64,000 nt of DNA from Candidatus Doudnabacteria bacterium (GCA_016218585.1 JACRDK010000030.1:24277-88276), one strand, 5' to 3'; shown: positions 1,116-49,334, counted from the stretch's first letter. Made by a program: numbers and translations. Notes: generated by a model from the sequence alone, not told the origin.

Positions 1116-1155
1116 CCCTGACATAAATTACGCGGCCGCGTAATTTATGTCAGGG
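1116..1155. repeat. 40-bp perfect palindrome (ccctgacataaattacgc ggcc gcgtaatttatgtcaggg) centred on GCGGCCGC, at the junction between the sortase gene and a GC-rich island
   Basis: Read directly; the reverse complement of the left arm equals the right arm. No U-tract follows on either strand, so it is not a canonical intrinsic terminator. Confidence 0.6.
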
Positions 1156-1306
1156 ATGAGTTGATTTAAATAATATAGAGCGGGCGCGCCCGTGTTTATA
1201 ATCTGATTGTAAAAGGGTATTGTAAACATCGCGTGCTCGGCTCTCGGCCGACACATTCGTCGGCTCAGGCCGAGAACAATACAACAAAAGAAGAGGGGAT
1301 AAGACA

Positions 1307-2668
1307 GTGAATTTTGGACAACTGATTGCGATTCTGATGACCGTTCTGCTAATCGGCGGGGCTTTTCCCGTCGCGGCGCAGAGCCAACCGGTATCCACAC
1401 AAACCGCCCAGCCCCACCCGGGTGTCCGGGTGAGCGTGGAGAAGTTTCCGCTCATTCCGCCGGTACCGGGCCAGCGGCCGATTTATACGATCGGCCAGAT
1501 CGTATTCGCCGCCGAAGAAATATACAAAAGCGGCGTCAACGGCTCGTTTGTGAAGGCTTTTGGCCAGGCCAAGAGCCACGTTGAGCAGGCACAGGCAATC
1601 ATCTCCTTTGCCTCCAAAGAGTTGCTCGCGCAGCTCGAGGAGATGAAGAAGTCACCCGAAGGGCCGTTGCCGGAACCGGAGCAATATCAAGCGCTCAAGG
1701 ACCCGAAAGTGGCTTTGGACTACGCCGCTGTCAAACAATCGTTTGTGCCTTTTTCCGAATGGGGTGAAAGTCCTTTCGGAGAGGAAGTAACGGACTGGAA
1801 AGGTCTCTGTGAGACCTATCAGGATACCATGGCCGCGATGATCCAACGCACTAACTATTCACCTGCAATGAAGGTGGAATGGGCAGACGCGTTGGCTCAT
1901 GTGTGTGCCAACGGCCTTGACGGTCGCTACTCCAAGGTGGTGGATTTGGTTGACTGGCCGCTCTGGCAATGGACTACTGGTCGTACTGTTGGGACATCTC
2001 ATTCTGGAAACAGAATACCTGGTGTCAACGTGATGTACGTCGGTGGCCATGCTTCCGCCCTCTATCTCTACCTGCCCAAGTCGGCTACGGTAGTGATGCA
2101 CGGGTTCAAGTGCAAGGGGAATCCGATTGTTCCTTTCGTCATCGGTTCATTCCAGGTGACGAAGGAGACGACGAGGATTCCTGCCTGTTTGGGGCTTAAT
2201 GGCGATTCAGGCTTTGTCCAAACGGGCAAGACTGTTCGTTTCAGCGCTCACTTTGACAACCCTGCCGGAGTGCCTTTTGACTTCCGCTTCATCCTCACGG
2301 ACAAGCGGACCAGCAAAACCAAAGTGCTTGGTGAAAACCAGCCTGAGGTGACGTTGGAGCAGAAGGAGGCCGGCGAGTACGAGGTAAGTGTAACTGGCGA
2401 ATTCGAAGGGAAGCCAATACCAGCCTTGGGCTGTGTAATGGCTATCACCTTCGTTAAGCCCATTCCGCCGCCTCCGCCGACGTTTGTCACTACCACGCCT
2501 CCGCCGACAAGGCCCGCAATCGTTCCGCCGCCGCCCAAGAAGGGTGGGCACGGATGGATCTGGGTTCTTGTAGCGGCAGGTGCTGGCGCTGGCATTGGTC
2601 TGGCACTGATGGGTGGTGGAATTCGCAAGGATCCGGCAACTGCCGCTGGCACCGGCTGGAGACCGTAA
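1307..2668 (+). CDS. Hypothetical secreted, membrane-anchored protein: signal peptide, about 380-aa unknown domain, Pro-rich stalk (PPPPPTFVTTTPPPTRPAIVPPPP) and C-terminal TM helix; encoded in a roughly 58% GC island
   Basis: Long ORF with GTG start. N-terminal hydrophobic signal LIAILMTVLLIGGAFPVAAQ. C-terminal WIWVLVAAGAGAGIGLALMGG TM segment. Base composition is markedly higher in GC than all flanking genes. The 5' leader (1160-1300) contains several GC hairpins, and a T-tract hairpin follows at about 2680-2735. Confidence 0.6.
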   Translation: MNFGQLIAILMTVLLIGGAFPVAAQSQPVSTQTAQPHPGVRVSVEKFPLIPPVPGQRPIYTIGQIVFAAEEIYKSGVNGSFVKAFGQAKSHVEQAQAIISFASKELLAQLEEMKKSPEGPLPEPEQYQALKDPKVALDYAAVKQSFVPFSEWGESPFGEEVTDWKGLCETYQDTMAAMIQRTNYSPAMKVEWADALAHVCANGLDGRYSKVVDLVDWPLWQWTTGRTVGTSHSGNRIPGVNVMYVGGHASALYLYLPKSATVVMHGFKCKGNPIVPFVIGSFQVTKETTRIPACLGLNGDSGFVQTGKTVRFSAHFDNPAGVPFDFRFILTDKRTSKTKVLGENQPEVTLEQKEAGEYEVSVTGEFEGKPIPALGCVMAITFVKPIPPPPPTFVTTTPPPTRPAIVPPPPKKGGHGWIWVLVAAGAGAGIGLALMGGGIRKDPATAAGTGWRP

Positions 2669-2849
2669 TTCACTGTTCGTAAAAGCATTGGTGGTCGGGG
2701 AGAGGAGCAATCCTCTTTCCGACCTACCATTCATCAATTTTTAACTTTTTGGCTTAATTAAGGCAAGTAGTTAAAAACGGAAGAATAGTAGGTATTAAGA
2801 CAATTAAAAAAATAAACCTCTTATTTATAAGGTAAATCAATAAAAATTA

Positions 2850-7289: not shown

Positions 7290-7299
7290 ACAAAATTGT

Positions 7300-7340
7300 A
7301 AAAACCCCGCCTTTGACTTGCTCAGGGCGGGGTTTTTGTT
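7300..7340 (+). terminator. Rho-independent terminator after the giant surface protein gene
   Basis: aaaaaccccgcc tttgacttgctca gggcggggtttttgttt: a 7-8 bp GC stem followed by a T-run. Confidence 0.8.
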
Positions 7341-7540
7341 TGGGCGCTTGTCAGATGAGTGTAATAACCCTGCCGGTGTCGCCCCGGAATTTTTAGCCTG
7401 CCCGCCGAAGCCTTGGCGAAGTTGGGGGTTGTAAAAATATTCGGGATCCGGAACTTGGCTTAAATACTGGATCCCGGCTCGGGAGCCGGGATGACACCAG
7501 GCTTAGGTTATTGGACTTACGTCTTGCCTGCTTGCATATT
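7341..7540. ncRNA. Candidate structured non-coding RNA of unknown family (GC-rich, multi-hairpin element between a terminator and the next promoter)
   Basis: A roughly 200-nt GC-rich block in an AT-rich intergenic region. Nested helices: cgggatcc...ggatcccg; cccggctc g gagccggg; caggc..gcctg; long-range pairing aataacc/ggttatt and ggtgtc/gacacc enclosing a multi-stem junction. The only ORF (7393-7587 minus) is low-complexity and improbable. No match to SRP RNA, tmRNA, RNase P or tRNA motifs that I could recognise. Confidence 0.35.
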
Positions 7541-7670
7541 TTTTTCCAGATGTTATGATATATACAAATCAAAAAACAAATGAACAAGCGGCAAAATATG
7601 TGCCGTTTTTATTATAAGTAGGATTTTTTTATACCTAGCATCTGTTATCTAATATCTAACATCTAAATTT

Positions 7671-8846
7671 ATGGACAACACATACTTGCAGGAGCTAATA
7701 AACGAAACCAAACTTCGGGGCGGCGGGTTATTGCTTAATTATGAAGATAAGCCGGCTGTGGTTGTTTTAACCGTGGATAAATATAACAGCTTGCTAGAGG
7801 GCCAAGAGTTAGGAATTAAGAATCAAGCGGTTGAAATTCAAACAAGCCCCAAGGCAGAACTAGCCAGTACCCAATCTGTAAAAAAAGTTTTGGTTACCGG
7901 GGGAGCCGGATATATTGGCGGGCATTTGGTTCGGGAGTTAATTAAGCAGAATTATGAAGTGGTGGTTTTAGACAATCTTTCCACCGGCCGCAGGGAGAAT
8001 ATTGATCCGAAGGCAATTTTTGTGGAAGGAGATTTAGCCGATGTAAATTTGCTCCGCGATATTTTTGCCAATAACAACATATCCGCGGTTTTTCATATGG
8101 CCGCCAGCCTGGAAGTGGAAGAGTCTGTTAGGGAACCGGAAAAATATTTTAAAAATAATACCCAAAACACTATCGGACTTTTAGAAGTTATGAAAGAGTT
8201 GGGGATTAACAAAATAATTTTTTCCTCAACCGCCGCGGTTTATGGCGAAAATGCCAAAGTTCCGATTAACGAAAACTCCCCGCTGCATCCCAATAATCCG
8301 TACGGCTCCAGCAAGCTGCTCACCGAAAGGAATATTAAATATTTTTGCGAGTACCTTGGTTTTAAGGCCGTAATTTTCCGCTATTTTAACGCCTGCGGTT
8401 TTGACGAAGAAGCCAATATTTTGCCGACCCACCAGTCTCACTTAATTTACAAAGTTATGCAGGTTGCCAAAGGAGCCGAACCGATTTTAAAAATTTTTGG
8501 CAACGACTACGAAACATTTGACGGTACCTGCATTCGCGATTATGTCCATGTGCTGGATATTGTCTTGCCGCATATTTTGGCTTTGGAAAAGTTAAATGGA
8601 GATTTGAAATTTGAAATTATAAACATTGGCACCGGCACAGGCTTAAGCGTTGCCCAAATTGTCAACGGAGCTTCAGAAATCATCGGCCGCATTATTCCCA
8701 TGGAAACCGCGCCGCGCCGCGCCGGGGACGCGCCGGCAACGGTTGCCGACAACTCCAAACTGGTTAACTTGCTGGGCTATGAGCCTAAATTTAGCAGCCT
8801 AAATAACATACTTACCAGCAGCTGGGAAGTTCTGAAAAAAGATTAA
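7671..8846 (+). CDS. galE: UDP-glucose 4-epimerase / NAD-dependent epimerase-dehydratase with a roughly 70-aa N-terminal extension resembling a Phd/YefM antitoxin fold
   Basis: Rossmann motif VLVTGGAGYIGGHLV, catalytic YGSSKLLTE (YxxxK), C-terminal epimerase domain. N-terminal KPAVVVLTVDKYNSLLEGQEL resembles YefM [20 protein letters not shown]. No in-frame stop or alternative start between extension and epimerase core. Confidence 0.85.
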   Translation: MDNTYLQELINETKLRGGGLLLNYEDKPAVVVLTVDKYNSLLEGQELGIKNQAVEIQTSPKAELASTQSVKKVLVTGGAGYIGGHLVRELIKQNYEVVVLDNLSTGRRENIDPKAIFVEGDLADVNLLRDIFANNNISAVFHMAASLEVEESVREPEKYFKNNTQNTIGLLEVMKELGINKIIFSSTAAVYGENAKVPINENSPLHPNNPYGSSKLLTERNIKYFCEYLGFKAVIFRYFNACGFDEEANILPTHQSHLIYKVMQVAKGAEPILKIFGNDYETFDGTCIRDYVHVLDIVLPHILALEKLNGDLKFEIINIGTGTGLSVAQIVNGASEIIGRIIPMETAPRRAGDAPATVADNSKLVNLLGYEPKFSSLNNILTSSWEVLKKD

Positions 8847-9753: not shown

Positions 9754-11640
9754 ATGAAGTTTTTTAGCACACAGCACCAGCATAGTTTCCTTTCAAATTT
9801 GTTAGAAAGTGCGGCAAAGATTTTAAGCTTTGCCGCAGTTTTTGCGTTTATTGCCTCGCCGATTTTTCCCGTAAACTACGCGCTGGCGCAAAAATCCGAA
9901 ACCACTTATATGGTCAAATTAAAAACAGGATTCGGCGAAAACTTGTTAAGCAAAGTCGGCTCAAACATTCGCCACCGTTTTGTTTCCGCCGAGTCGCCGG
10001 TTTTTTATAATATTTATAGTTTTAGTTCCGGTTATTCAGCGGCAGTTTTAACGGACTATTTAAAAAATAAAGCGGAATATTTGGAAGAGCAAAAACCTTT
10101 AGCAGCTTCTTCCGTTTATGTGAACGATCCCGGGTTTTCCACCGATCCGTTAAATATTGATAAACAATGGGCTTTAATAAAGGCGGGTTTTGATAAAGCC
10201 TGGGAAAAAACCACCGGAAGCAAAAGCAATGTTGTGGCGGTAATAGATACAGGAGTAGACGAAACCCACCAGGACTTATCGGCAATTAATTTTGTAAAAG
10301 GTTTTAATTTTATTTCCAACCAGGAAATTGCCACAAGCACCAATTCGGACGACAACGGCCACGGAACATTAGTTACCGGCGTTCTTGGCGCCACCGCAAA
10401 CAACGGTTTGGGAATAATTGGAACCAACTGGCAGATTTCCGTTATGCCTCTTAAAGCGCTTGACGCAAACGGCAAAGGCGAAGCGGCGGATGTGGCCGAA
10501 GCTATTGTTTGGGCCACTGACCACGGCGCGCAGTTTTTAAATATGAGCATTGGCGGCATTGGCTTTGGCCATGACACTACTTTGGCTAACGCCGTTACTT
10601 ACGCCTTTAATAAAAATGTTTTACTGGTGGCGGCCGCCGGAAATGACGTGGCGGCAACAGGCAGCAATTTGGACCAAAGCCCGGTGTTCCCAATTTGCGA
10701 TGATAATAATTTTAATATGGTAATTGGCGTTTCCGCCAGCGATCAAAATGATTTAAAGCCGGACTTTTCCAACTACGGCAGAAATTGCATAGATGTAACA
10801 GCCCCCGGAAAAAGAATTTTGTCCACAATAAATTATGACCCGCTTACAAAAAAAGCATCGCCTAGTTCTTATGCCTATGCTTCCGGAACCTCTTTGGCAG
10901 TGCCTTTTGTGGTCGGCCAAGCCGCTCTAATAAAGGCGCTGTATCCGTTTGCTACTAATATTCAAATACGCGACCGAATAATTACCACTGCAGACCCAAT
11001 TGATAATTTAAATCTTACTCAGTGCGCCGGCGGCCCTTGCCGCGGCCTTTTGGGAACCGGAAGAATTAATGTTTTAAATAGTTTGCAGACCGCGATAGCC
11101 CAGGGGTATGCGGAAGGCGACTTGGTAAAGGAAGAAAGCACCGGGGCAATGTATCAAATAATTGGCGGGCAAAAAAGATTAATTTCCCCATTTGTTTACA
11201 ACCAGCGTTTCAGCGGTTCTAAATTAAAAACTCTTAGCGCCGGGGAATTGGCCTCTTTGCCGGACGGAAGCTATGTTACGCCAAACGACGGCACTCTGGT
11301 AAAGCTGGACTCCGACCCCACGGTATATGTTATTGCCAACGGACAAAAACAGCCCGTGTCGTATCAGGTTTTTTTGCAAAGAAAAATGAATTTTGCCAGC
11401 GTAAACACTTTAAGCTTTTCGGAAGTTAATTCCTGGATTACCGGAAGCTTTTATCCGCCGGAAGAGGGAACCTTGATAAAATCAGATAAAGATAAAACCG
11501 TTTATTGGGTTGTTGGCCAAACCTTGCACCCGATTAACTATGGATTTTTTATGGAGCGGGGTTTGAATGTTTTTCCAATCTTGGTAGTTTCTGAAAAAGA
11601 TATTGTCAGTTTTGCAAAAGGGGAGAGTTATATAAGATAG
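9754..11640 (+). CDS. Secreted subtilisin-like serine protease (peptidase S8) with N-terminal propeptide and three C-terminal roughly 58-aa repeats
   Basis: Catalytic triad motifs VIDTGVDETHQDL (Asp), HGTLVTGVLGA (His), GTSLAVPFVVGQAAL (Ser). Signal peptide. C-terminal repeats GTLVKLDSDPTVYVIANGQKQPVSYQVF... repeated three times. Confidence 0.9.
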   Translation: MKFFSTQHQHSFLSNLLESAAKILSFAAVFAFIASPIFPVNYALAQKSETTYMVKLKTGFGENLLSKVGSNIRHRFVSAESPVFYNIYSFSSGYSAAVLTDYLKNKAEYLEEQKPLAASSVYVNDPGFSTDPLNIDKQWALIKAGFDKAWEKTTGSKSNVVAVIDTGVDETHQDLSAINFVKGFNFISNQEIATSTNSDDNGHGTLVTGVLGATANNGLGIIGTNWQISVMPLKALDANGKGEAADVAEAIVWATDHGAQFLNMSIGGIGFGHDTTLANAVTYAFNKNVLLVAAAGNDVAATGSNLDQSPVFPICDDNNFNMVIGVSASDQNDLKPDFSNYGRNCIDVTAPGKRILSTINYDPLTKKASPSSYAYASGTSLAVPFVVGQAALIKALYPFATNIQIRDRIITTADPIDNLNLTQCAGGPCRGLLGTGRINVLNSLQTAIAQGYAEGDLVKEESTGAMYQIIGGQKRLISPFVYNQRFSGSKLKTLSAGELASLPDGSYVTPNDGTLVKLDSDPTVYVIANGQKQPVSYQVFLQRKMNFASVNTLSFSEVNSWITGSFYPPEEGTLIKSDKDKTVYWVVGQTLHPINYGFFMERGLNVFPILVVSEKDIVSFAKGESYIR

Positions 11641-11712: not shown

Positions 11713-13566
11713 ATGAAAAAACAAAAGTACATAAAAATTATTTCCGGACTATTTTTGGTCGTCTTTCCATTTTTGGCAATTGCCCAATCGCCGGACCCAA
11801 ATTTTAATCCAAGCAAGCTTATTGAAGACAAAACTTTTTCCGACACCAAGACTTTTGGCGGCGCTGATGGCATACAAAAATTTTTGGTTGCCAAAAATTC
11901 CGTTCTGGCCAATACCAGCCCGGATTTTTTAGCTAAGCTTAAAGAGCCGCAATCGGTTATGTTAAAAGAAGGTTTGGGAGACCCGCAGCCAAACTTAGGC
12001 CGTTTGCGCACCGCGGCAGAATTAATTTGGGACGCTTCCATTCAGAGCGGCCTTAACCCGCAAGTTATTTTGGTTACCTTAAACAAAGAGCAGGGGTTAA
12101 TAACTTCGGCTAACGATTACGACGCGGCGCGCCTGCAAAAAGCTTTAGATCACGCTATGGGTTTTGATTGTCCGGACTCCAGCGGTTGCGGCAATCTTTT
12201 CCCGGGTTTTTATTTTCAGATTTTTGGCAACTACGATTCGGAAAATAACCGCTATTTAGGCGCGGCAAAATCGTTAATGAAATCTTTTACCACTGTTGGC
12301 GGAAGAGGCCCGGTAGTGGAAGGCGCGGCCGCAAAAGTTGGCCAGGCGATTACTTTAGACAACACTATGGGCGGGTATGAAAATATTATGCCGCAGCAAA
12401 CTTTTATTATTTCCAACAATGCCACGGCCGCGTTGTATCGTTATACCCCGCACGTCTTTAACGGCAACTATAATTTTTGGAAATTTTTTCAAGGCTGGTT
12501 TAAGTATCCAAACGGCACTCTGTTAAAACTTGCCGGCGGCGCGGATTTATACATTATTGAAAATGGCGTTAAGCAGTTGGTGCCGCAATTTGTGGCCCAG
12601 GCCAGGGCGCTAGATGTAAATTCTACCATTACGGTATCGCCAACGGAGTATGACAGCTACACCACAGACAAGCCTTTGGGACCGGTTGATAATACCGTTG
12701 TTCAGGACGCCAGCGGAACAAAGTATGTTTTTATTAGCAACGTCAGGCACCAGGCCTCGGATTTAGTTATTAAACAAAGAGGCTTGGATCCGGCAAAAAC
12801 TTTGAGCATAACCCCGACGGAAGCGGCAATTTTTGACGCCGGTTCGGTCTTGCCGCCTAAAGATGGAACGGTTATTCGCGGCGTTGCAGACCAAAGCGTT
12901 TACTTAGTTGCTAACGGACAAATTAAAATGTTTAGCGCATACACCTTTGCGCAAAATAAAATTAAAGCCAAAGATATTTACACAGTGCCCGACGCGGAAA
13001 TTGCCACCTATAGTAAAAATGGTTTTGTAGCTCCGCTTGACGGCAGCTTGGTAAAGACCGCCTCAAATGGTACGGTTTACTTGGTGGAAAATTCCTTAAA
13101 GCGCCCAATTTTGGCAGACATATTTAAAATTAGAGGGTTTAGCTTTAAAAACGTGAGTGCTATTTCGGAAGATGAAATGAGTTCTTTGCCGATTGGCGCT
13201 TATGCCACGCCGAAGGACAGAACGTTCTTTGCGGTTGATTCCAAAACCGGCCCCTTATATATGTTTAAAGAAGGAACTAAACACAGCATCTCCAGTTTTG
13301 TGGCCAAGCAGCGCGGCATAACTCCGGATTATGTTTTCAGCAACAGCGTGGCAATAGAATGGTATGACGGCATTCCTGTTCCGCCGGCTAACAACACAAT
13401 TATAAAAGGCGATTCCGACCAGACTGTATTCTTGGTTGTTAATGGACAATTAAGGCCGCTCACTTATCAGGCCTTTAAGAATCGCAAAATTACCGCAAAG
13501 AAAATTGTAACTTTGCCTCAAATCGAAGTTGACGCTTACGCCAAAGGCGATACTTTGACCAAGTAG
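11713..13566 (+). CDS. Secreted protein with unknown N-terminal domain and six copies of the same roughly 58-aa repeat found in the upstream S8 protease
   Basis: Signal peptide IISGLFLVVFPFLAIAQS. Repeats begin GTLLKLAGGADLYIIENG, NTVVQDASGTKYVFISN, GTVIRGVADQSVYLVANG, GSLVKTASNGTVYLVENS, RTFFAVDSKTGPLYMFKEG, NTIIKGDSDQTVFLVVNG, each ending in a ...P/PP boundary. Confidence 0.75.
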   Translation: MKKQKYIKIISGLFLVVFPFLAIAQSPDPNFNPSKLIEDKTFSDTKTFGGADGIQKFLVAKNSVLANTSPDFLAKLKEPQSVMLKEGLGDPQPNLGRLRTAAELIWDASIQSGLNPQVILVTLNKEQGLITSANDYDAARLQKALDHAMGFDCPDSSGCGNLFPGFYFQIFGNYDSENNRYLGAAKSLMKSFTTVGGRGPVVEGAAAKVGQAITLDNTMGGYENIMPQQTFIISNNATAALYRYTPHVFNGNYNFWKFFQGWFKYPNGTLLKLAGGADLYIIENGVKQLVPQFVAQARALDVNSTITVSPTEYDSYTTDKPLGPVDNTVVQDASGTKYVFISNVRHQASDLVIKQRGLDPAKTLSITPTEAAIFDAGSVLPPKDGTVIRGVADQSVYLVANGQIKMFSAYTFAQNKIKAKDIYTVPDAEIATYSKNGFVAPLDGSLVKTASNGTVYLVENSLKRPILADIFKIRGFSFKNVSAISEDEMSSLPIGAYATPKDRTFFAVDSKTGPLYMFKEGTKHSISSFVAKQRGITPDYVFSNSVAIEWYDGIPVPPANNTIIKGDSDQTVFLVVNGQLRPLTYQAFKNRKITAKKIVTLPQIEVDAYAKGDTLTK

Positions 13567-13590: not shown

Positions 13591-13624
13591 ACCCCCCCAA
13601 GACAAGTATGTCTTGGGGGGTTTG
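13591..13624 (+). terminator. Rho-independent terminator (12-bp stem) after the repeat-protein gene
   Basis: acccccccaagaca agta tgtcttggggggtttg. Confidence 0.8.
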
Positions 13625-13694
13625 CTTTGACTTTATTGAGGTTTTATAATAAGATTTTGCTACGTTTAGATTTTCAAAAAGGAGGTGTAATCGA

Positions 13695-14282
13695 ATGATT
13701 GCACTGATTAGTGTTACTGACAAAACCGGCATTCAGGAATTTGCCGCCACCCTTTCAGCATTGGGATTCGATCTGGTTTCTACCGGCGGGACAGCAGACA
13801 CTCTTCGCCTCGCCGGGCTTAAAGTAAAAGATGTTTCGGAGCTGACGGGCGTGCCCGCAATGATGGGCGGCAGAGTGAAGACCTTGGATTACCACATTCA
13901 CGCCGGAATCTTGGCGGATCGGGACAATCCGGAGCACATGGCCGATGCCGCAAAGTATGGCATCGAGATGATTGACCTGGTTGTGGTTAACCTCTATGAT
14001 TTTTTGGGTACAGCGGAAGATCCGGATGTTTCTTTGCCGGAACTTACCGAAAGCATCGACATTGGCGGACACACTCTGGTCCGTGCCGCGGCTAAGAACT
14101 GGAAGCATGTCGGTGTGGTGGTTAACCTGCAGGACTACGACCGGATTTCTGAAGAGCTGGTGCAGCGGGGTGGCTGGTTGAGCAGCGGCACCAAGTTAAG
14201 TTTGGCCATTGAGGCCCTCGATGCCGTCGCTTGTTATGACAGGTCTATTCCAGACGTTCTCAGGGACCGTGCCGGCTACTAG
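13695..14282 (+). CDS. purH: Stand-alone IMP cyclohydrolase / MGS-like domain corresponding to the N-terminal half of PurH (AICAR transformylase domain absent); GC-rich, with degenerate conserved motifs, so a possible decaying horizontally acquired fragment
   Basis: ALISVTDKTGIQEFAATLSALGFDLVSTGGTADTL, GRVKTLDYHIHAGILADRDNPEH, VVVNLYDF, IDIGGHTLVRAAAKNWKHVGVVVNLQDY align to the PurH IMPCH domain (actinobacterial-type HAGLLAD). The conserved KTLHP and NLYPF motifs are altered to KTLDY and NLYDF. About 55% GC against about 40% in neighbours. Own promoter-like TTGACT/TATAAT and a strong SD aaggaggtg 7 nt before ATG. Confidence 0.8.
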   Translation: MIALISVTDKTGIQEFAATLSALGFDLVSTGGTADTLRLAGLKVKDVSELTGVPAMMGGRVKTLDYHIHAGILADRDNPEHMADAAKYGIEMIDLVVVNLYDFLGTAEDPDVSLPELTESIDIGGHTLVRAAAKNWKHVGVVVNLQDYDRISEELVQRGGWLSSGTKLSLAIEALDAVACYDRSIPDVLRDRAGY

Positions 14283-14305
14283 CAAATCACAGCAGTCTAT
14301 CTAAC

Positions 14306-14345
14306 AAAGCGGTTCCCGGAAATAGTGTTCGGGAACCGCTTTTGC
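14306..14345 (+). terminator. Rho-independent terminator after the purH-fragment cassette
   Basis: aaagcggttcccg gaaatagtgtt cgggaaccgcttttgc. Confidence 0.8.
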
Positions 14346-16737: not shown

Positions 16738-17823
16738 ATGACTATTGGAATTGAAGCAGAGCGAGCCAATAATCCCTTTAAAACCGGCGTGGAGCATTAT
16801 GCCAAACAGTTAATTCTCCACTTAGCCGAGTTAGATAAGGAAAATAATTATATTCTGTATTTGCGCACCAGACCCGAAACCTGGTTTTTTGAGTTGCCTA
16901 AAAACTTTACGGTAAAAGTTTTGCCTTTTCCTCTGTTTTGGACGCAGCTCCGGCTGAGTTGGGAAATGTTTTGGCACCCCGTTGATGTATTATTTATTCC
17001 CGCTTCCGCTATGCCGTTAATCCATCCAAAAAATTCCATTACCACAATTCATGATTTAGCCTGGAAGTTTTACCCGGAAAGTTTTACCTGGTTTAATAGA
17101 AATTTTTTGGAATTTTCCACCAGATTTGCGGTTAAAACCGCCAAGAACATTATTGCCGTTTCTCAGAGCACAAAGAACGATCTGGTAAAATTTTATAAAA
17201 TTCCGCCTGAGAAGATAACCGTAGTTTTGCACGGTTATGAAGAAAGCAAACATCACGAAGTATTTAGCGGAGAAGGCGAGATAAAAAATTTGCCGGAAAA
17301 GTACGTTTTGTTTCTATCCACGCTGCAGCCGAGAAAAAATTTGGAAGGATTAATAGATGCCTTTGCGCTGCTTAAGCAGGAACACCCGGAATTGCCGCAC
17401 AAGCTGGTTGTGGTTGGGCGGCCGGGGTGGAAGTTTGAAAGCATTCTGGATAAAATTAACCGGCACAAAGATTTCGTCGTTTATTTAAATTATTTGTCGG
17501 ACAGTGATCGCCTGGAAGTTTTAGCTAAAGCGGAGATTTTGGTCCAGCCTTCTTTTTACGAGGGCTTTGGCATGCAGATACTGGAAGCTTTTTCTCTCCG
17601 TGTTCCTGTGGCAACATCTAATGTTTCAAGCATGCCGGAAGTTGCCGCCGAGGCCGCTATGTATTTTGATCCGCATAATCCAAAGGATATAAAAAATTCC
17701 CTGAAAATGATGTTGATGGATAAAAGCCTTCGGGATTCGCTGATTGCCAAAGGAAGCGAAAGGCTAAAAGGTTTTAGCTGGAGGAAATGCGCCCAGGAAA
17801 CCCTTGCTGTTTTAAAAAAATAA
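16738..17823 (+). CDS. Family 4 (GT-B) glycosyltransferase
   Basis: EGFGMQILEAFSLRVPVATSNVSSMPEV, a classic GT4 EX7E-region motif; about 360 aa. Confidence 0.85.
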   Translation: MTIGIEAERANNPFKTGVEHYAKQLILHLAELDKENNYILYLRTRPETWFFELPKNFTVKVLPFPLFWTQLRLSWEMFWHPVDVLFIPASAMPLIHPKNSITTIHDLAWKFYPESFTWFNRNFLEFSTRFAVKTAKNIIAVSQSTKNDLVKFYKIPPEKITVVLHGYEESKHHEVFSGEGEIKNLPEKYVLFLSTLQPRKNLEGLIDAFALLKQEHPELPHKLVVVGRPGWKFESILDKINRHKDFVVYLNYLSDSDRLEVLAKAEILVQPSFYEGFGMQILEAFSLRVPVATSNVSSMPEVAAEAAMYFDPHNPKDIKNSLKMMLMDKSLRDSLIAKGSERLKGFSWRKCAQETLAVLKK

Positions 17824-33373: not shown

Positions 33374-33415
33374 AACACCCCCTTTGCCGCAAGGCTCTGG
33401 GGGTGTTACTTTTTG
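33374..33415 (+). terminator. Rho-independent terminator after the GC-rich small ORF
   Basis: aacaccccc tttgccgcaaggctct gggggtgtt actttttg. Confidence 0.8.
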
Positions 33416-33475
33416 CTCAAATTTGAGTATGATATAATGTAGATAATAATTAAAAAACTAAAAACAACAAAATCT

Positions 33476-34246
33476 ATGGAAAATGTCTTGCCAAAATGGC
33501 TGGTTACAGGCTTGGGCGGTTTGCTTATCGCCTTTGTCGCTTTACTAGTCATCCAACAGTCTTACAATGTTAAGACTTTAGTCAAAAATCAAAAGCCAAC
33601 CAATACCATCTCAGTTTCCGCTGAGGGTAAAATAAAAGCAGTGCCGGATTTGGCCACTGTAAGCATTGGTGTTATGTCGCAGGGCGCAACAGCCGCTGCG
33701 GTTAAAGATTCCAACAATGGAAAAATCAACAAAATTATAGACTTTATAAAAGCGCAAGGAATACCAGCCGAAGACATTACCACTTCCCAGTTCAGCTTTT
33801 ATCCGCAGCAGGATTGGCAGAACGGCAAGGGGACTATTATTGGCTACCAAAGCGACCAGACTGTTTCTGTAAAAGTAAAAGGCGTAGATAAAACCCAGGA
33901 CGTTTTAGAAAAAGTTTTGGATGGCGCGGTAAATAACGGCGCAAACCAAATCCAGGGTGTTTCTTTCAGCTTTGAGAAGCCGGAAGATGTGCAGCAGGAA
34001 GCCAGAAAACAGGCTATAGACAACGCAAAAACCAAAGCTCAAGGATTGGCTCAGGAAGCCGGCTTAACTCTTGGAAAAGTTGTGAGCATTTCCGAAACCA
34101 ACTCCGCTATGGGTTCTCCTGTTATGTATAATGCGGTTGCCAGCGGCTTAGGCGGCGGCGGAATGGACAAATCCATTGCTCCTAATGTTGAACCTGGAAG
34201 CCAGGACATTACTGAAAGCATGACTGTGGTGTTTGAAGTCAAATAA
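33476..34246 (+). CDS. SIMPL-domain (DUF541) periplasmic / immunogenic protein family
   Basis: N-terminal TM; KIKAVPDLATVSIGVMSQGATAAAVKDSNNGKINKIIDFIKAQGIPAEDITTSQFSFYPQ and the C-terminal region are typical of the SIMPL family. Confidence 0.8.
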   Translation: MENVLPKWLVTGLGGLLIAFVALLVIQQSYNVKTLVKNQKPTNTISVSAEGKIKAVPDLATVSIGVMSQGATAAAVKDSNNGKINKIIDFIKAQGIPAEDITTSQFSFYPQQDWQNGKGTIIGYQSDQTVSVKVKGVDKTQDVLEKVLDGAVNNGANQIQGVSFSFEKPEDVQQEARKQAIDNAKTKAQGLAQEAGLTLGKVVSISETNSAMGSPVMYNAVASGLGGGGMDKSIAPNVEPGSQDITESMTVVFEVK

Positions 34247-34287
34247 AAAACAGATTTACAGATACCTACAGATAAAAACTACCACCC

Positions 34288-34650
34288 TTTTGGGGTGGTA
34301 GTTTTTATTGCGCCAAGCAAACTCATAAGCCGAATTCTGTTTTAAAATAATCATCTATCTTGTCCCGATGTTGCCATCGGGATCGAGCAGCCTACCAAAT
34401 TTGGCCTTGCACTCAAGTAAGGATTTGGCCGTTTCACTCCCGCATTGCTGCGGGAACAGTCCAGCTCTTTTTTGCAAAAGGGTTGGACTACTTAGCCTTT
34501 CGGCATCAGTCGTTTCTGTTCGCACCTCTAGGATTACTCCCGACGGGAATTACCCGCTACCATTCTTGATAACTCTATAGAGGTTATCAAATAAGTGTTC
34601 GGACTTTCCTCCCCGCCCTTTGGATTGCATTAAAGACAATTTTGAATGCG
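34288..34650 (-). ncRNA. rnpB: RNase P RNA (bacterial type), minus strand; exact ends approximate
   Basis: The reverse complement contains the universally conserved P4 strand GGGCGGGGAGGAAAGUCCGAAC, GGGAGUGAAACGGCC, GCAAGGCCAAAU...GGUAGGCUGCUCGAUCC and the 3' P4 partner ACAGAAUUCGGCUUAU, in canonical order. GC-rich relative to its surroundings. The track ORFs at 34360-34580 lie within it and are non-coding artefacts. Confidence 0.8.
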
Positions 34651-34941
34651 CTTGCGTAAGTGCCCCCACGAGCTACCATATTGCTTAAGCTTAATTTCTC
34701 TTATTAGCGCATCCTTTTTATTAGCGTACGCTTCGTAATAAACTAATTTAAACGGAGCGTAAGCTTTTGTCGCTGTTTCTTTAGAAGCATTATGTTGAGA
34801 AAATCTTGCTTTTAAATCACCGGTTTGACCGATGTAAATAAAATCAGACTTTATACTCTTAATTATGTAAACATAATGCATATGCAATCCAAAGAGCGGG
34901 GCGATTATTCGGTTTGCTTGGAGCAACCAGTATAATAGCAT
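34630..34941 (-). CDS. GIY-YIG nuclease-domain small protein
   Basis: YVYIIKSIKSDFIYIGQTGDLKARFSQHN (GIY..YIG..R..H.N core); 103 aa; its 3' end abuts or overlaps the 5' end of rnpB on the same strand. Confidence 0.7.
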   Translation of the reverse strand: MLLYWLLQANRIIAPLFGLHMHYVYIIKSIKSDFIYIGQTGDLKARFSQHNASKETATKAYAPFKLVYYEAYANKKDALIREIKLKQYGSSWGHLRKRIQNCL

Positions 34942-35016
34942 TATTTGACATTAATGTCAATATATAGTGTAATATAACCCTTTTTCTTAAGAAAAAGACG
35001 TGGTATAATAAGGAGT

Positions 35017-36450
35017 ATGAAAAAGACCGAACTTCTTTTTAACTTAATTTCCATTCCGGTGGACGCTATTTCCTTGCTTTGTGCGGGAATTGCGTCTTTT
35101 TATTTGCGCCAAAAAACCACCACCATTGTCGGGCCAATTATTTACCAATTGGAAATAAACAGTTTCCTGTCCGTGGTCTACAAAATAATTTTGTTTTTAA
35201 TTATCCTGTTTGCGCTGCTTGGTTTGTATAACTTAAAGGGCACCCGCAAATTTATTTCTGAGTTGGGCAGGATTGTCGTCGGCGAGTCGCTCGGGCTTTT
35301 GCTAGTTATATTATTATTCTTTTTTAATCAAAATATTTTCCCATCCAGGTTCATAATTTTGGCTACTTGGGGTTTAGGGATAGTTTTTGTTATTTGCGGC
35401 CGTTTAATTTTAAAACTTTTCCAGACATTTTTGTTTGCTAAAAATATCGGCCTGCATAAATTAATTGTTATAAAAGGCGGCGTGGAGCAGCCGGTTATTG
35501 AGAGCGTTTATAAAAACAGGCGCAATGGCTACGAAATTGTAGCCGAATTGCCGGTCAATGAAAAACTTTTGGAAAAACTGGAAGAGTTTTACAACCGCGG
35601 ACAAATAGACGAAATTCTCCAAACTAACGCCGGATTGGGTGACGCTGATAATTTAAAATTGGTTCAGTTTGCCCGCGGCAAAGGGCTAAAGTTTAGTTTT
35701 GTTCCAAATTTGTTCGAGGTGCAGCGCAACATTATTGAAACAGAAAGCGTGAATGGCTTGCCGGTAATTAGTTTAAAAAATACCCCGTTGGACGGCTGGG
35801 GAAAAGTTATAAAAAGAATTTTGGATGTTGTTGTGAGTTTTGTTTGCCTGTTGTTAACCTCGCCGCTTTTTTTAATAATTACAATTGCAATTAAACTTGA
35901 TTCCAAAGGCAAAGCAATATACTCCGCCTTGCGCGGAGGCCGCGGAAAAGATTTTCGGTTTTACAAATTCCGCAGCATGTATCAGCACTTAAGCGTTGGA
36001 AAAGAATATGGCGGGGAAAACGCGGAAAAAATCAGGCAGGAGCTGTGGCATAAAAATGACCGCGGCGGGGAAAATGGCCCGTTCTTAAAAATTAAGGACG
36101 ACCCCAGGGTTACTAAAGTTGGGAAGTTTTTGCGCCGCAGCAAGTTAGACGAAATTCCGCAGTTTTGGAATGTATTAAAAGGGGATATGAGCATGGTTGG
36201 TCCCAGGGCTCATGTTTTGGACGAAGTTGAACGTTATAGGAACCGCTATCCAAGAATGTTTAGCATTAAGCCGGGAATTTTTGGGCTTTCCCAAATTGCC
36301 CAGGTATCCTGGCCGGACTTGCCGTTTGAAGAAGAAATTCGCCTAAATACTTTTTACATAGAAAATTGGTCCGTCTGGCTGGACATAAAAATTTTGGCAA
36401 AGACTTTTTGGCTGTTATTTTTTGCCAAAAAACCAAAAACCGATTATTAA
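35017..36450 (+). CDS. Polyprenyl-phosphate sugar phosphotransferase (initiating glycosyltransferase, WbaP/WcaJ-like)
   Basis: N-terminal TM bundle, CoA-binding-like central region, C-terminal bacterial sugar transferase domain (MSMVGPRAHVLDE..., PGIFGLSQIAQVSWPDLPFEEEIRLN...YIENWSVWLDIKIL). Confidence 0.85.
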   Translation: MKKTELLFNLISIPVDAISLLCAGIASFYLRQKTTTIVGPIIYQLEINSFLSVVYKIILFLIILFALLGLYNLKGTRKFISELGRIVVGESLGLLLVILLFFFNQNIFPSRFIILATWGLGIVFVICGRLILKLFQTFLFAKNIGLHKLIVIKGGVEQPVIESVYKNRRNGYEIVAELPVNEKLLEKLEEFYNRGQIDEILQTNAGLGDADNLKLVQFARGKGLKFSFVPNLFEVQRNIIETESVNGLPVISLKNTPLDGWGKVIKRILDVVVSFVCLLLTSPLFLIITIAIKLDSKGKAIYSALRGGRGKDFRFYKFRSMYQHLSVGKEYGGENAEKIRQELWHKNDRGGENGPFLKIKDDPRVTKVGKFLRRSKLDEIPQFWNVLKGDMSMVGPRAHVLDEVERYRNRYPRMFSIKPGIFGLSQIAQVSWPDLPFEEEIRLNTFYIENWSVWLDIKILAKTFWLLFFAKKPKTDY

Positions 36451-46026: not shown

Positions 46027-46045
46027 TTGAACAAAAATTGATATT

Positions 46046-46162: not shown

Positions 46163-48901
46163 ATGTCATTTTTAACCAAACTTTTTACCGGAGAAACCAG
46201 TCCTTTAGAGAAGTATGCCAAAGAATTGCAGGAAGCAAACTCCTATAAAGAAGAAATTGCTGCGCTTACCCAGGATCAGATTAAGGCAGAAATTGAAAAA
46301 TTTAAGCAAGAACTTAAAAAGCTTGAGTCTGATAAAGAAGTTTTTGCTCATTTAACAAAAATTTCACCGCGGGTATTTGCAATAACCAGAGAAGCATCTA
46401 AAAGAAGCATTGGCCAATTCCATTACGACGTACAAATGGTTGGCGGCTTTGCTTTGGCCAGCAGCAAAATTGCTGAAATGAAAACCGGTGAAGGTAAAAC
46501 CCTTACCGCGACTTTGCCATTAGTGCTTTATGCCTTAGCAGGACGCGGCGCTCATTTGGTTACAGTTAACGATTATTTGGCCAGGTGGCAGGCTTCTTTA
46601 ATGGGGCCAATTTATAAGTACTTAGGCATGTCCGTAGCTTCCATTCAGCATGAAGCGTCTTTTATGTTTGACGACGGCTACCAGCCGGAAGCGGAAGAAA
46701 TAGAAAGGCTGGAAGGGGAGACGCAAGGATTGGTGCTGGACGTAAAACATATGCGCCCCATATCCAGGCGCGAAGCTTATGCCGCGGATATTACTTACGG
46801 CACGAACAACGAATTTGGTTTTGATTATTTGCGCGACAATATGGTGCAGAGCGTTCAGCAGCTGGTGCAGCGCGAATTATTTTTCTCTATTGTGGACGAA
46901 GTCGACAGTATTTTAATTGACGAGGCCAGAACCCCGTTAATTATTTCTATGCCGGACTCAGAGCCAACCAGCAAATATTATGAATTTGCTAAATTAGTTG
47001 ACCGCCTGCAGGAAGAAACAGATTACACGGTAGATGAAAAACATAAAGCCGCCTCTTTAACCGACGCCGGCATAAACAAAATTGAAGGTATTTTAAAAGT
47101 GCCTAATATTTATGACACCTCCAAGGGCGTAACCACTATTCACCACATTGAGCAGGCTTTGCGCGCCAGGACTTTGTTTAAAAAAGATCGCGACTACGTG
47201 GTTAGCGAAGGTGAAATTATTATTGTAGATGAATTTACCGGCAGATTAATGTTTGGCCGTCGTTATAGCGAAGGTTTGCACCAGGCAATAGAAGCTAAAG
47301 AAAATGTGCAAATTCAGCAGGAAAGCAAAACCTTAGCCACAATTACCTTCCAAAACTTATTCCGTTTGTATAAAAAACTTTCCGGTATGACCGGTACCGC
47401 TAAAACGGAAGAAGAGGAATTCTTTAAAATTTATCAGCTTACTGTAGAACAGATTCCAACCAATAAGCCAAATGTCAGGCAAGATTTGTCCGACGCGGTT
47501 TATAAAACGGAAACCGCCAAATTTAAAGCTATTGCCCAGGAAGTAAAGGCTCGCTACAAAAAAGGCCAGCCAGTGTTAATTGGTACAGTTAGTATTGCTA
47601 AAAATGAAATTTTGGCAGACTTCTTAAAACAGGAAGGCTTGCCCTTTGAAATTTTAAACGCCAAAAACCACGAACGTGAAGCGCATATTATTTCCCAAGC
47701 AGGACGCCCGGGGCAAATAACGCTTGCCACCAACATTGCCGGACGCGGGGTAGACATTTTGCTTGGCGGCAACCCGGTAGACCAGGAAGAGGCCGCAAAA
47801 GTCAGGGAAGCCGGCGGTTTGCATATTTTAGGAACAGAGCGCCATGAGTCGCGCCGTATAGACAACCAGTTGCGCGGACGCGCCGGACGCCAAGGCGACC
47901 CCGGAAGTTCTCAGTTCTTTGTGTCTATGGAAGACGACCTAATGAGGCTATTCGGCGGCGACCGGATGAAGAGCTTAATGAATACTTTGGGTTTGCCCGA
48001 TGACCAGCCGGTAGAAGCTAAAATGGTTTCCAGAAGCATTGAACAGGCGCAAAAGAAGATTGAAGGATTGAACTTTGATACCAGAAAACATGTTTTGGAA
48101 TTTGACGATGTTTTAAACCATCAACGCAATATAATTTATAAAAAGCGCCGCGGTTTTTTGGTTGGCACCGAAGAGAGCAAGAAGACAGATTTGAAACAGG
48201 AAATTCTAGGGATGGCCAAGGACGAACTGGTTGAAGTCGCTGAATTTAACTTAAACCAGTTAGACGAGCACGGAGGGAAAAAAGAAGACTGGGCGAATTT
48301 GTTTAAGACTGTTGGCACAATGGTGCCGGTTGATCAAAAATTGATAGATAAGGTTAAGGAAGCCGCTAAGGACGCGGCAGACAGAGAATTTGCGGTTGCC
48401 GATACCTTCTACAAAGCGGTAGAAGAAAACTGGGAAGCCAAAGAAAAAGAAATGGGCAAAGAAGTGTTTGAGGGAGCACAGAGATTTGTTGCCCTGCAAT
48501 CTTTAGACAATCTTTGGATGGAACATTTGGACACAATGGATCATTTGCGCGACAGCGTCCGCCTTCGCGGTTATGGGCAACGCGATCCGTTGGTGGAATA
48601 TAAAAAAGAAGGCTATGTAATGTTCCAGAATTTGGTAAAGGAAATGAATAAACAAATTGTTTATACCATTTTCCATATTACCGTTCAGGTAAACCAGCAG
48701 CCAAACCAGCAAAAACCGCTTAAGGATTTGGTAACCAGTTCAGCGAGTGGCTCAATGCAAACCGGCGGGCAAACAGATCCAAAATACGAAGGCGTAGGCC
48801 GCAACGACCCCTGCCCATGTGGAGCGATAAATCCTGAAACAGGCAAGCCATATAAGTTCAAGCGTTGTGGGATGATAAACGCTAGCTACCATAAAAAATA
48901 G
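46163..48901 (+). CDS. secA: Preprotein translocase ATPase SecA (start placed at MSFLTKLF; the ORF track gives an upstream ATG at 46121)
   Basis: MSFLTKLFTGE... N-terminus typical of SecA, DEAD-like motor (MKTGEGKTLTATLP, VDEVDSILIDEARTPLIIS), C-terminal Zn finger CPCGAINPETGKPYKFKRCG. Confidence 0.95.
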   Translation: MSFLTKLFTGETSPLEKYAKELQEANSYKEEIAALTQDQIKAEIEKFKQELKKLESDKEVFAHLTKISPRVFAITREASKRSIGQFHYDVQMVGGFALASSKIAEMKTGEGKTLTATLPLVLYALAGRGAHLVTVNDYLARWQASLMGPIYKYLGMSVASIQHEASFMFDDGYQPEAEEIERLEGETQGLVLDVKHMRPISRREAYAADITYGTNNEFGFDYLRDNMVQSVQQLVQRELFFSIVDEVDSILIDEARTPLIISMPDSEPTSKYYEFAKLVDRLQEETDYTVDEKHKAASLTDAGINKIEGILKVPNIYDTSKGVTTIHHIEQALRARTLFKKDRDYVVSEGEIIIVDEFTGRLMFGRRYSEGLHQAIEAKENVQIQQESKTLATITFQNLFRLYKKLSGMTGTAKTEEEEFFKIYQLTVEQIPTNKPNVRQDLSDAVYKTETAKFKAIAQEVKARYKKGQPVLIGTVSIAKNEILADFLKQEGLPFEILNAKNHEREAHIISQAGRPGQITLATNIAGRGVDILLGGNPVDQEEAAKVREAGGLHILGTERHESRRIDNQLRGRAGRQGDPGSSQFFVSMEDDLMRLFGGDRMKSLMNTLGLPDDQPVEAKMVSRSIEQAQKKIEGLNFDTRKHVLEFDDVLNHQRNIIYKKRRGFLVGTEESKKTDLKQEILGMAKDELVEVAEFNLNQLDEHGGKKEDWANLFKTVGTMVPVDQKLIDKVKEAAKDAADREFAVADTFYKAVEENWEAKEKEMGKEVFEGAQRFVALQSLDNLWMEHLDTMDHLRDSVRLRGYGQRDPLVEYKKEGYVMFQNLVKEMNKQIVYTIFHITVQVNQQPNQQKPLKDLVTSSASGSMQTGGQTDPKYEGVGRNDPCPCGAINPETGKPYKFKRCGMINASYHKK

Positions 48902-49035
48902 AGTGAAATCGGCCGGAGCTTTAGCGAAGGTGGACGGCAGCGGAAAAAAGTTTAAGAAATGCCACGGGAAGTAGGAGACAGGTAAAATGGTAAAATGAAA
49001 GAGAGGTCAGACGACTGTCCAACCTCCCCAGTTTT

Positions 49036-49215
49036 CTACCGATGTTCGGTTATGGCGACACACGTGTGTTCACCTATGAGTTTCGAGTAATACATCGCCG
49101 TTACCCGTAACTCCGCGTGTTTGCCGCAAAATTGCGACATCGCTTCGGCGAGAGTTTTACCGCTCCATCTAACTTCCCACACGCCATTACCGTAGTCCTT
49201 CTCGATATAATCCAT
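49036..49215 (-). CDS. Hypothetical 59-aa protein encoded on the minus strand inside a GC-rich cassette with a perfect sigma-70 consensus promoter
   Basis: Manual translation: MDYIEKDYGNGVWEVRWSGKTLAEAMSQFCGKHAELRVTAMYYSKLIGEHTCVAITEHR. Upstream on the minus strand: TTGACA-N17-TATAAT and SD aaaggag 7 nt before ATG. About 55% GC. Preferred over the overlapping + strand track ORF 49117-49359. Confidence 0.45.
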   Translation of the reverse strand: MDYIEKDYGNGVWEVRWSGKTLAEAMSQFCGKHAELRVTAMYYSKLIGEHTCVAITEHR

Positions 49216-49334
49216 TTCCCGCTCCTTTTAGATTTTCATATAATTATAGCATATAATTATAAATCTGTCAATATGAGGGAAAAGCCCCTTAAAAAATGGG
49301 TAAATCGTGTGTTTAAGGAAAAAATGGAAAAAAT

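Follow-up and report, generated by a model that had tools for sequence, protein, structure and literature searches.

Four GC-rich single-gene units

The 64-kb stretch of DNA analysed here (the window) belongs to a metagenome-assembled genome of Candidatus Doudnabacteria, in the candidate phyla radiation (CPR, Patescibacteria), and has an overall guanine-plus-cytosine (GC) content of 41.1%. Within it, four open reading frames (ORFs) are set apart by their base composition: ORF1 (1307-2668, plus strand; 453 amino acids, GTG start), ORF2 (13695-14282, plus strand; 195 amino acids), ORF3 (32993-33343, plus strand; 116 amino acids) and ORF4 (49036-49215, minus strand; 59 amino acids). On a 105.8-kb contig, ORF1 and ORF3 correspond to HY918_05245 and HY918_05385, each at 100% identity, and ORF2 to HY918_05275 at 99%, the NCBI model of the latter beginning 22 codons downstream of the start used here. 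An earlier reading of the DNA alone (the original prediction) had given these lengths and coordinates correctly and had described the four genes as GC-rich cassettes in a uniformly AT-rich genome.

The coding sequences of ORF1 to ORF4 reach 56.4%, 54.1%, 52.7% and 49.4% GC. Their GC contents at third codon positions (GC3; 0.626, 0.607, 0.624 and 0.583) are the highest four among 56 ORFs, the remainder lying at 0.405 ± 0.067 with a maximum of 0.51, which bears out the claim that the four are GC-richer than their surroundings. The segments that hold them (1150-2740, 13591-14345, 32877-33415 and 48902-49230) measure 54.9%, 51.3%, 49.9% and 48.6% GC; the earlier estimate of 53-60% is right for the first segment and somewhat high for the other three. 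Compared with size-matched sliding windows, segments 1-3 are clear outliers (z = 4.1, 2.5 and 2.0) and segment 4 is a weaker one (z = 1.4).

The four ORFs also share one codon usage, distinct from that of the neighbouring bulk genes, as had been proposed, and from that of the ribosomal-protein genes as well. CTC (0.29, background 0.03), ATC (0.40, background 0.08), AAG (0.67, background 0.28) and CGG (0.32, background 0.07) are enriched, and TTA (0.03, background 0.34) is depleted. GC content at first and second codon positions (GC1 and GC2) and the content of Gly, Ala, Arg and Pro are likewise raised. The ribosomal-protein genes favour C-ending two-fold codons and avoid GAG (0.05), CGG (0.00) and CTC (0.05), codons that the cassettes use at 0.50, 0.32 and 0.29; translational selection for high expression was rejected as an explanation on this ground. 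In native genes, four-fold sites are about 50% GC, yet two-fold codons are strongly A/T-ending (AAA 0.72, TTT 0.85) and ATT makes up 0.70 of all Ile codons. The contrast between cassettes and background lies mostly in two-fold, Leu, Ile and Arg codons and not in four-fold sites.

The original prediction explained this composition by four independent and recent acquisitions from high-GC organisms, for example an actinobacterial host, whose signature had not yet drifted towards that of the genome. Outlier GC3 and codon usage favour such an import, and so do the GC1/GC2/GC3 values of ORF2 (0.61/0.40/0.61), which resemble the values expected at equilibrium for about 55% genomic GC according to relationships reportedly described by Muto and Osawa. 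The codon usage of the cassettes is, however, nearer to genomes of 52-57% GC than to either the host genome or an actinobacterial locus of 70% GC.

Each ORF is predicted, from its expression signals, to be an autonomous transcription unit placed at an intergenic terminator/promoter junction. Hairpins flank every ORF on both sides (-22 to -32 kcal/mol, z = -4 to -9 against shuffled sequences). Promoter-like sites match the consensus at 9 of 12 positions for ORF2, 10 of 12 with a TG for ORF3 and 12 of 12 with a TG for ORF4, and Shine-Dalgarno (SD) sequences (AGGAGG, AAGGAG and AGGAG, respectively) lie 6-9 nt ahead of the ATG. Both the promoter and SD signals ahead of these three genes and the hairpin bracketing of all four had been foreseen. 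The SD spacing and the GC1 > GC2 < GC3 pattern in the annotated frame indicate that the two small ORFs are really coding. The 100 nt upstream of ORF2, ORF3 and ORF4 have 30-36% GC and the DNA beyond the terminators 14-40%; in these three units the GC elevation consists of the coding sequence and the terminator stem and ends sharply at the AT-rich promoter, and the GC-rich tract thus roughly coincides with the transcript.

Comparison of the cassette flanks revealed no common repeat apart from one 12-mer, TTTAGATTTTCA, which occurs exactly twice in the 64 kb (13665-13676 at ORF2 and 49227-49238 at ORF4). Each copy is flanked by the -10 box and the SD sequence of a GC-rich cassette; the two have opposite orientations relative to the gene and may reflect chance or a common operator. 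Integron-type cassettes, like common boundary repeats, were rejected, since only this 12-mer is shared, and no recombinase or integrase was found among the window ORFs scanned against protein families.

In metagenome-assembled genomes, short patches of high GC are a well-known warning of chimeric assembly or binning, which would have placed fragments of a GC-richer organism into a CPR contig. Against this, Logan contigs from another assembler (run SRR12113407) match window positions 32342-36114 and 46816-49295 at 100% identity and cross both junctions of ORF3 and of ORF4, while several unrelated samples and assemblies reproduce the junctions of ORF1 and ORF2. Exact look-ups of ORF1, ORF2 and P0001 gave no recorded contig. 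The GC-rich tract, moreover, starts at the start codon and is framed by native-looking promoters and terminators. We therefore rejected an assembly artefact, which we regard as extremely improbable.

Conserved loci of ORF1 and ORF2

ORF1 is probably a cell-surface protein. Its N-terminus looks like a signal peptide and leads into a conserved N-terminal domain of about 290 amino acids, an immunoglobulin (Ig)/PKD-like domain, a Pro-rich stalk and a C-terminal membrane helix; the conserved domain carries two motifs that are invariant across homologues, DWPLWQWTTG (DWPLWQWTTGR in the window) and C-x-GNP (CxGNPxxPF). The PKD match is weak and under the Pfam cutoff; the structure model (predicted local distance difference test, pLDDT, 57) is confident for an Ig-like domain at residues 290-390, and the C-terminal domain matches only Ig/FN3-like folds. 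At the C-terminus a hydrophobic helix is followed by RK, and the adjacent gene encodes a sortase. No LPXTG-like motif was found in ORF1; the neighbouring giant protein carries APKTGAE followed by a helix and KRRK.

Relatives of ORF1 are few, with five in 5.8 billion clustered proteins and about 13 in an exhaustive search of 1.8 billion representatives, and the sole named homologue belongs to Candidatus Doudnabacteria. No relatives appeared in IMG/VR, and there was no significant PHROG match. All homologues with readable context adjoin a sortase gene and/or precede a giant surface protein. Three contigs (L048-L050) have the order sortase, homologue (P0124) and giant CLIPPER/DUF11 protein, and three more (L051-L053) have the order sortase and homologue (P0125), at which the contigs end. 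The closest homologue (50% identity), on a contig that holds no sortase gene (L054), lies just upstream of a partial 304-residue gene, which is taken to be the N-terminus of the giant protein. The homologues share 35-50% amino acid identity and keep both the codon preferences of ORF1 and its GC-richness (GC 0.536-0.544, GC3 0.555-0.60, against neighbours near 0.40). At shared four-fold sites, ORF1 and its homologues have the same base in only 17-41% of cases, close to random; synonymous sites that are near random and still GC-rich indicate that the composition of ORF1 is not an inherited sequence remnant.

The ORF1 unit is bounded upstream by a near-perfect hairpin (1113-1159, plus strand; about 21 pairs with a 19-bp perfect core, -32.3 kcal/mol, z = -9.4), centred on the NotI site GCGGCCGC directly 3' of the sortase gene, far stronger than a usual terminator and without a T-run. 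A second GC-rich hairpin lies in the 5' leader (1236-1275, plus strand; fold z = -2.3), and the 100 nt before the start have an elevated GC content of 0.45-0.59 in the window and in three relatives (L048, L051 and L054), with poor alignment across lineages. Downstream, a terminator-like hairpin of 18 pairs (2689-2729, plus strand; -31 kcal/mol, z = -7.1) is followed by a very AT-rich spacer (GC 0.14-0.23).

ORF2 represents the IMPCH/MGS-like domain of PurH. It matches PF02142 at 4.7e-19, above the Pfam cutoff, positions 7-195 of the 510-position NCBIfam purH model (E 2.5e-67) and human ATIC (1P4R, E 1.1e-46). The protein stops at residue 195, with a terminator following, and covers only positions 1-59 of the 311-position PF01808 model; the 5-aminoimidazole-4-carboxamide ribonucleotide (AICAR) transformylase domain is absent, and the four orthologues are likewise short (191-203 amino acids). 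Residues K62, Y101, D122 and K134 align with Lys66, Tyr104, Asp125 and Lys137 of human ATIC, which we take to be its catalytic residues, and some motif-adjacent residues differ (HP to DY, P to D, P to H). The description of ORF2 as a purH half with mutated core motifs did not survive this alignment, in which all four catalytic residues are kept. We predict that ORF2 is an intact, stand-alone inosine monophosphate (IMP) cyclohydrolase of the PurJ type.

PurJ denotes the IMPCH domain of PurH encoded as a separate gene, a stand-alone IMP cyclohydrolase (PMC6486802). ORF2 resembles it in its length of about 195 amino acids, in consisting of the MGS-like IMPCH domain plus the first 59 linker positions, in the catalytic Lys/Tyr/Asp/Lys set and in having many homologues of about 200 amino acids across diverse phyla; the solved homologue ForH (PDB 6NKO, 216 amino acids) is likewise a short chain. 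It differs in that the scanned ORFs of the window include no purV, purP or other gene of purine synthesis, and in its location within a cell-envelope glycan cluster.

The same locus recurs in four relatives. In a neighbour-joining tree, ORF2 groups with four short genes, all lying after orthologues of the 617-residue DUF7454 gene that precedes ORF2 (78-83% identical), and other CPR IMP cyclohydrolases fall elsewhere; in one relative (L135) the surrounding 20 kb are collinear with the window. All five copies are GC-rich (GC 0.516-0.568, GC3 0.59-0.65, against 0.32-0.43 in the flanks), and all five keep the layout of hairpin, TTGACT-17-TA(A/G)(A/G)AT promoter, AGGAGG, coding sequence and terminator. 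In the window these elements are a two-way terminator hairpin of 12 pairs after the DUF7454 gene (13593-13620), which has a counterpart at the equivalent position in all five lineages; a plus-strand leader (13627-13694) holding the conserved promoter (TTGACT, 17 nt, TAAGAT), a 5' untranslated region with TTTAGATTTTCA and the SD sequence AGGAGG (13680-13685); and a plus-strand terminator hairpin of 15 pairs with a T-run (14306-14342; -24.7 kcal/mol, z = -6.1).

Cassette and flank differ sharply in their divergence. Two relatives (L142 and L139) share 99% identity over the last 241 amino acids of the flanking gene and just 76% in the cyclohydrolase; their DNA agrees at 97.5% as far as the flanking gene's stop codon and at 77% over the cassette. 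Another pair (L139 and L141) shares 93% identity in the downstream gene and 55% in the cyclohydrolase, and the identity matrices of cassette and flank are decoupled. The drop in identity at the upstream cassette edge shows that the cassette has a history different from that of its flanks and has been exchanged among relatives, which amounts to allelic replacement by recombination among Doudnabacteria at this locus. Gene content beside the cassette also varies: L142 has a methyltransferase gene (761-1501) between the 617-residue gene and the cyclohydrolase, and L135 (10690-12051, minus strand), L139 and L141 carry between the cyclohydrolase and the flippase gene a reverse-strand gene for a secreted protein of 453 amino acids that is not in the window.

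Outside its own clade, ORF2 has best matches of about 50-56% identity, spread over many phyla, none of which stands out as a donor. Homologues at 18 other loci have a GC content within about 0.04 of that of their genome in 17 cases, across a range of 41-72%, and a protein constraint that forces GC-richness was therefore rejected for ORF2. The exception is an uncultured Saccharibacteria contig (L040), where the cyclohydrolase gene has 54.5% GC in a 42.6% background. This 43% GC contig holds four single genes of 52-58% GC (1487-2242, 9989-10603, 12866-13198 and 17167-17568; GC3 0.59-0.78), one of them the stand-alone IMP cyclohydrolase. A phage origin was rejected as well: ORF2 matches phrog_30501, but its tblastn matches to phage records do not exceed 52% identity, and those with an annotation are full-length purH genes of the ordinary kind, partly from records that bear bacterial names. 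Since CPR bacteria are generally thought to lack purine synthesis and the other CPR cyclohydrolases lie elsewhere in the tree, it is plausible that ORF2 reached the clade by an ancient transfer.

These comparisons bear directly on the proposal of recent import. Orthologues of ORF1 and ORF2 occupy the same loci in 4-5 diverged lineages, and because every one of them is equally GC-rich while synonymous sites are saturated, the composition is no sign of recent arrival. The best matches of both genes are close CPR relatives with the same synteny, an outcome that the original prediction had itself named as counting against import. One better ORF2 match is labelled Actinomycetes (P0003), which favours the proposal; the nearest relatives of ORF2 are nevertheless Doudnabacteria, as judged by synteny, and not Actinobacteria. 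Homology searches, proposed earlier as the way to find high-GC best matches, yielded no actinobacterial preference, and no high-GC lineage has a homologue of ORF1, ORF3 or ORF4. An actinobacterial donor is thus not supported, the ORF2 tree, the search matches and the codon usage all standing against it, and the recent-import model is largely refuted for ORF1 and ORF2.

ORF3, ORF4 and the surrounding window

ORF3 lies between rpsI and the SIMPL gene and has no homologue beyond its own record, no Pfam, PHROG or NCBIfam match and no IMG/VR relative. It has an N-terminal membrane helix or signal anchor, and its structure model (pLDDT 47) is confident for helix 4-21 only. The unit begins after the rpsI terminator hairpin (32878-32905, plus strand; 12 pairs), which is ancestral because a relative without ORF3 (L056) has a hairpin at the equivalent position. 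The plus-strand leader (32911-32992) contains the promoter (TTTACA, 17 nt, TATCAT, with TG) and the SD sequence AAGGAG (32981-32986). A plus-strand terminator hairpin with a T-run (33373-33408; -24.7 kcal/mol, z = -4.9) closes the unit at the position that the ancestral rpsI terminator occupies in another relative (L057), and the conserved SIMPL promoter comes next.

A metagenome scan with RpsI gave 80 related loci, and ORF3 is absent from all of them. In the closest two (L057 and L058; RpsI 82%, SIMPL 83%) and in seven others, SIMPL follows rpsI across an AT-rich spacer of about 100 bp; in a tenth relative, L056, the spacer is 260 bp. Eight further loci (L061, L063, L066, L067, L088, L101, L103 and L117) carry mutually unrelated inserts of 0.8-3.5 kb between the two genes, most of them lower in GC than their genomes and none higher in GC than the contig that carries it. 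The absence of ORF3 from the nearest relatives and the unrelated inserts elsewhere mark it as a lineage-specific gain at a variable junction, and the rpsI-SIMPL junction is, from this locus comparison, a hotspot of gene gain in the clade. That ORF3 is missing from the nearest relatives is also what a recent import would predict. The 15 nt that end rpsI (GGGCAAAACGTTAAT) occur again 34 nt downstream (window 32811-32859), and L056 has the same extra copy (8630-8690); this direct repeat was rejected as an insertion scar of ORF3, given its presence in a locus that lacks the gene.

ORF4 is an orphan, with no homologue, no Pfam, PHROG or NCBIfam match, no IMG/VR relative and no predicted membrane segment, although the exact protein was found again on a Logan contig (L002). 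It is convergent with secA, from which it is separated by its terminator hairpin of 13 pairs (49000-49029, minus strand). Its minus-strand leader (49216-49271) comprises a perfect promoter (TTGACA, 17 nt, TG-TATAAT, 12 of 12), a 5' untranslated region with TTTAGATTTTCA and the SD sequence AGGAG (49222-49226).

The gene content around the four units is typical of CPR bacteria: sortase, a 1443-residue DUF11 surface protein and the cell-envelope glycan cluster, along with the S13-S11-S4-RpoA-L17-L13-S9 ribosomal operon, Mur enzymes, SecA, SecDF and nucleotide-salvage genes. No tRNA genes were found in the 64 kb. An Alpha operon ribosome binding site (Rfam RF00140; 40.3 bits, threshold 38) precedes rpsM at 28754-28862. 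A very AT-rich gene (24678-25043) encodes a 121-residue "23S rRNA intervening sequence protein" that weakly resembles bAvd, which serves diversity-generating retroelements as their accessory protein; the window showed no reverse transcriptase. A solitary GIY-YIG nuclease gene lies at 34630-34941 on the minus strand.

The background is less even than the "uniformly AT-rich" genome of the original prediction. GC content peaks at 57-61% within secA (47621-48060), and a non-coding stretch 3' of the giant surface-protein gene (7290-7560) has about 52-55% GC. This stretch is made up of a terminator and, after it, about 220 nt whose fold is more stable than that of shuffled sequences (z = -4.1), with no Rfam family above threshold; it may represent a small RNA or the decayed remains of a fifth cassette. 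At the equivalent position, a relative (L048) has a GC-rich orphan ORF of 118 amino acids (16811-17167, GC3 0.60) without detectable similarity to it. Heterogeneity in the opposite direction is seen at 49335-53562, which is markedly AT-rich (GC 0.31-0.39, GC3 0.25-0.36, down to -2.3 standard deviations) and holds genes of nucleotide-salvage type (HD domain, dCMP-deaminase-like, DUF218, NUDIX, two guanylate-kinase-like and Ham1).

Origin and persistence of the GC-rich composition

We lean towards reading the four genes as accessory cassettes of different ages that circulate in the Doudnabacteria gene pool, which we hold to be somewhat probable. ORF1 would be a clade-restricted surface protein that already stood between the sortase and giant adhesin genes before the sampled lineages diverged. 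ORF2 probably reached the clade in a single entry from non-CPR bacteria, kept one locus and has since been swapped between lineages by homologous recombination at its conserved flank. ORF3 would be a recent insertion specific to its lineage, at a junction whose content differs from relative to relative, and ORF4 an orphan gene. Most detected transfers into Patescibacteria originate from other Patescibacteria (PMC12455944). From the four independent high-GC acquisitions first proposed, the outlier composition, the autonomy of the units, the absence of ORF3 from relatives and the separate history of ORF2 are retained, and the recent foreign source is not; across the four genes we judge that account quite improbable.

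The flanking genes share 62-84% amino acid identity and their four-fold sites are nearly saturated (same base at 0.30-0.46 of sites), so that neutral drift should have eroded much of any foreign signature. ORF1 diverges faster than the sortase, and ORF2 faster than the 617-residue gene and the flippase. GC-richness as a by-product of fast evolution was rejected, as the giant adhesin (37% identity) evolves as fast as the cassettes and has native GC. In the reading of circulating cassettes, GC-rich codon usage might persist through repeated allele replacement from a GC-richer reservoir and/or through recombination that favours GC, rather than simply because the genes are newcomers. Relatives with GC-richer genomes exist (RpsI loci of 50-52% GC), and a GC-richer CPR reservoir is conceivable.

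GC-biased gene conversion has been proposed for bacteria (PMC4450053), and frequent allelic exchange could in this way fix AT-to-GC changes at all codon positions and speed protein divergence. This would agree with the recombination breakpoint at the upstream edge of ORF2, with the decoupling of its divergence from that of the flank, and with ORF1 and ORF2 diverging faster than flanking genes of native composition. It would agree also with the generality of the GC shift, which extends to GC1, GC2, Gly, Ala, Arg and Pro and to codons that the ribosomal-protein genes avoid. Polarised third-position changes in the cyclohydrolase, however, display no AT-to-GC surplus (27 AT to GC against 31 GC to AT by parsimony in a small sample; 19 against 26 in a second count). 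Near-balanced changes of this kind argue against rapid decay towards AT and lend no support to a drive towards GC. In addition, the promoter and 5' untranslated region of ORF2 travel with the cassette and are still AT-rich, and the other inserts at the recombining rpsI-SIMPL junction are AT-rich. Gene conversion's reported effect in bacteria amounts to a few percent of GC3, not 20 points, and we consider it unlikely as the main cause.

Selection on the coding sequence or messenger RNA (mRNA) is another candidate, in which rare GC-rich codons would tune expression through mRNA stability or structure, slow translation or particular tRNAs. The match of the GC rise in ORF2-ORF4 to coding sequence and terminator stem is what such selection would produce, and the codon preferences persist in orthologues after synonymous saturation, with third-position substitutions near stationary. 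The window, however, holds no tRNA genes, an effect on expression is hypothetical, the four proteins (a surface protein, an enzyme and two orphans) have no obvious common trait, and the codon usage is unlike the "highly expressed" usage of ribosomal-protein genes. We rate this explanation as unlikely too, and slightly more so than gene conversion.

Several observations weigh against the reading of circulating cassettes that we favour. Over all codon positions, the cyclohydrolase has 39 AT-to-GC against 58 GC-to-AT changes, while the flank control is balanced (156 against 147), and this modest surplus would fit slow decay from a very GC-rich ancestral copy. Exchange is demonstrated at the ORF2 locus only, and the cross-lineage comparison of sites covers ORF1-ORF3. 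Among the relatives, which include loci of 50-52% GC, we found no GC-rich reservoir lineage with the cassettes. The AT-richness of the other rpsI-SIMPL inserts means that recombination or insertion alone is no source of GC-richness, and a GC rise that mostly ends at the start codon in ORF2-ORF4 fits selection on coding sequence or mRNA as well. The lasting GC-richness could be caused by replacement, biased gene conversion or selection on the transcript. Finally, the relatives are metagenomic contigs whose taxonomy comes mostly from synteny alone.

Circulating cassettes of this kind resemble known systems only in part. Like genomic islets, they combine deviant GC and codon usage with an intergenic location, and ORF3 is absent from relatives and ORF2 has a history unlike that of its flank; they differ in being single genes without integrase, tRNA gene or direct-repeat boundary, and in being GC-richer than the host genome, mobile DNA being usually AT-richer. 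Under simple amelioration, in the framework of Lawrence and Ochman, two of the four would not be expected to be syntenic and equally atypical in diverged relatives. At O-antigen and capsule loci, divergent alleles are swapped through conserved flanks, and in enterobacteria these are typically AT-richer. ORF2 shares with them the location in a polysaccharide-synthesis cluster, the sharp identity drop at the flank and variable neighbours, and differs in that the swapped unit is one gene for a cytoplasmic-type enzyme and is GC-richer than the genome. With integron cassettes, the four have in common the form of single-gene units bounded by imperfect hairpins, but they have their own promoters, are dispersed rather than arrayed, have hairpins that resemble ordinary T-run terminators and lie in a window without an integrase.

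It is common practice to take an atypical GC content as evidence of recent horizontal transfer and, for CPR episymbionts, as a possible clue to the host. That reading fails for the two largest cassettes, which are old, syntenic and clade-restricted and still look foreign, and composition-based transfer calls or host inference in CPR bacteria therefore need a check against relatives. ORF1 represents a surface-protein family that is uncharacterised and encoded beside the sortase gene, and ORF2 would be a stand-alone IMP cyclohydrolase, conserved and recombining, in bacteria thought to have no purine synthesis. If a GC-favouring force, linked to recombination or selective, is real and keeps a few genes far from the composition of the genome, Doudnabacteria would offer a compact natural system for its study. 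A more speculative idea, which we regard as doubtful, is that Doudnabacteria, and perhaps other CPR bacteria, actively hold a few single-gene cassettes, each with promoter and terminator, about 20 GC3 points above the genome over the long term, whether by biased gene conversion at recombination hotspots or by selection on mRNA or codon usage; the Saccharibacteria contig with the same pattern, including a GC-rich IMP cyclohydrolase, is a pointer to other CPR groups. If this were true, gene-specific base composition would be a stable inherited trait in reduced genomes and not a fading foreign mark.

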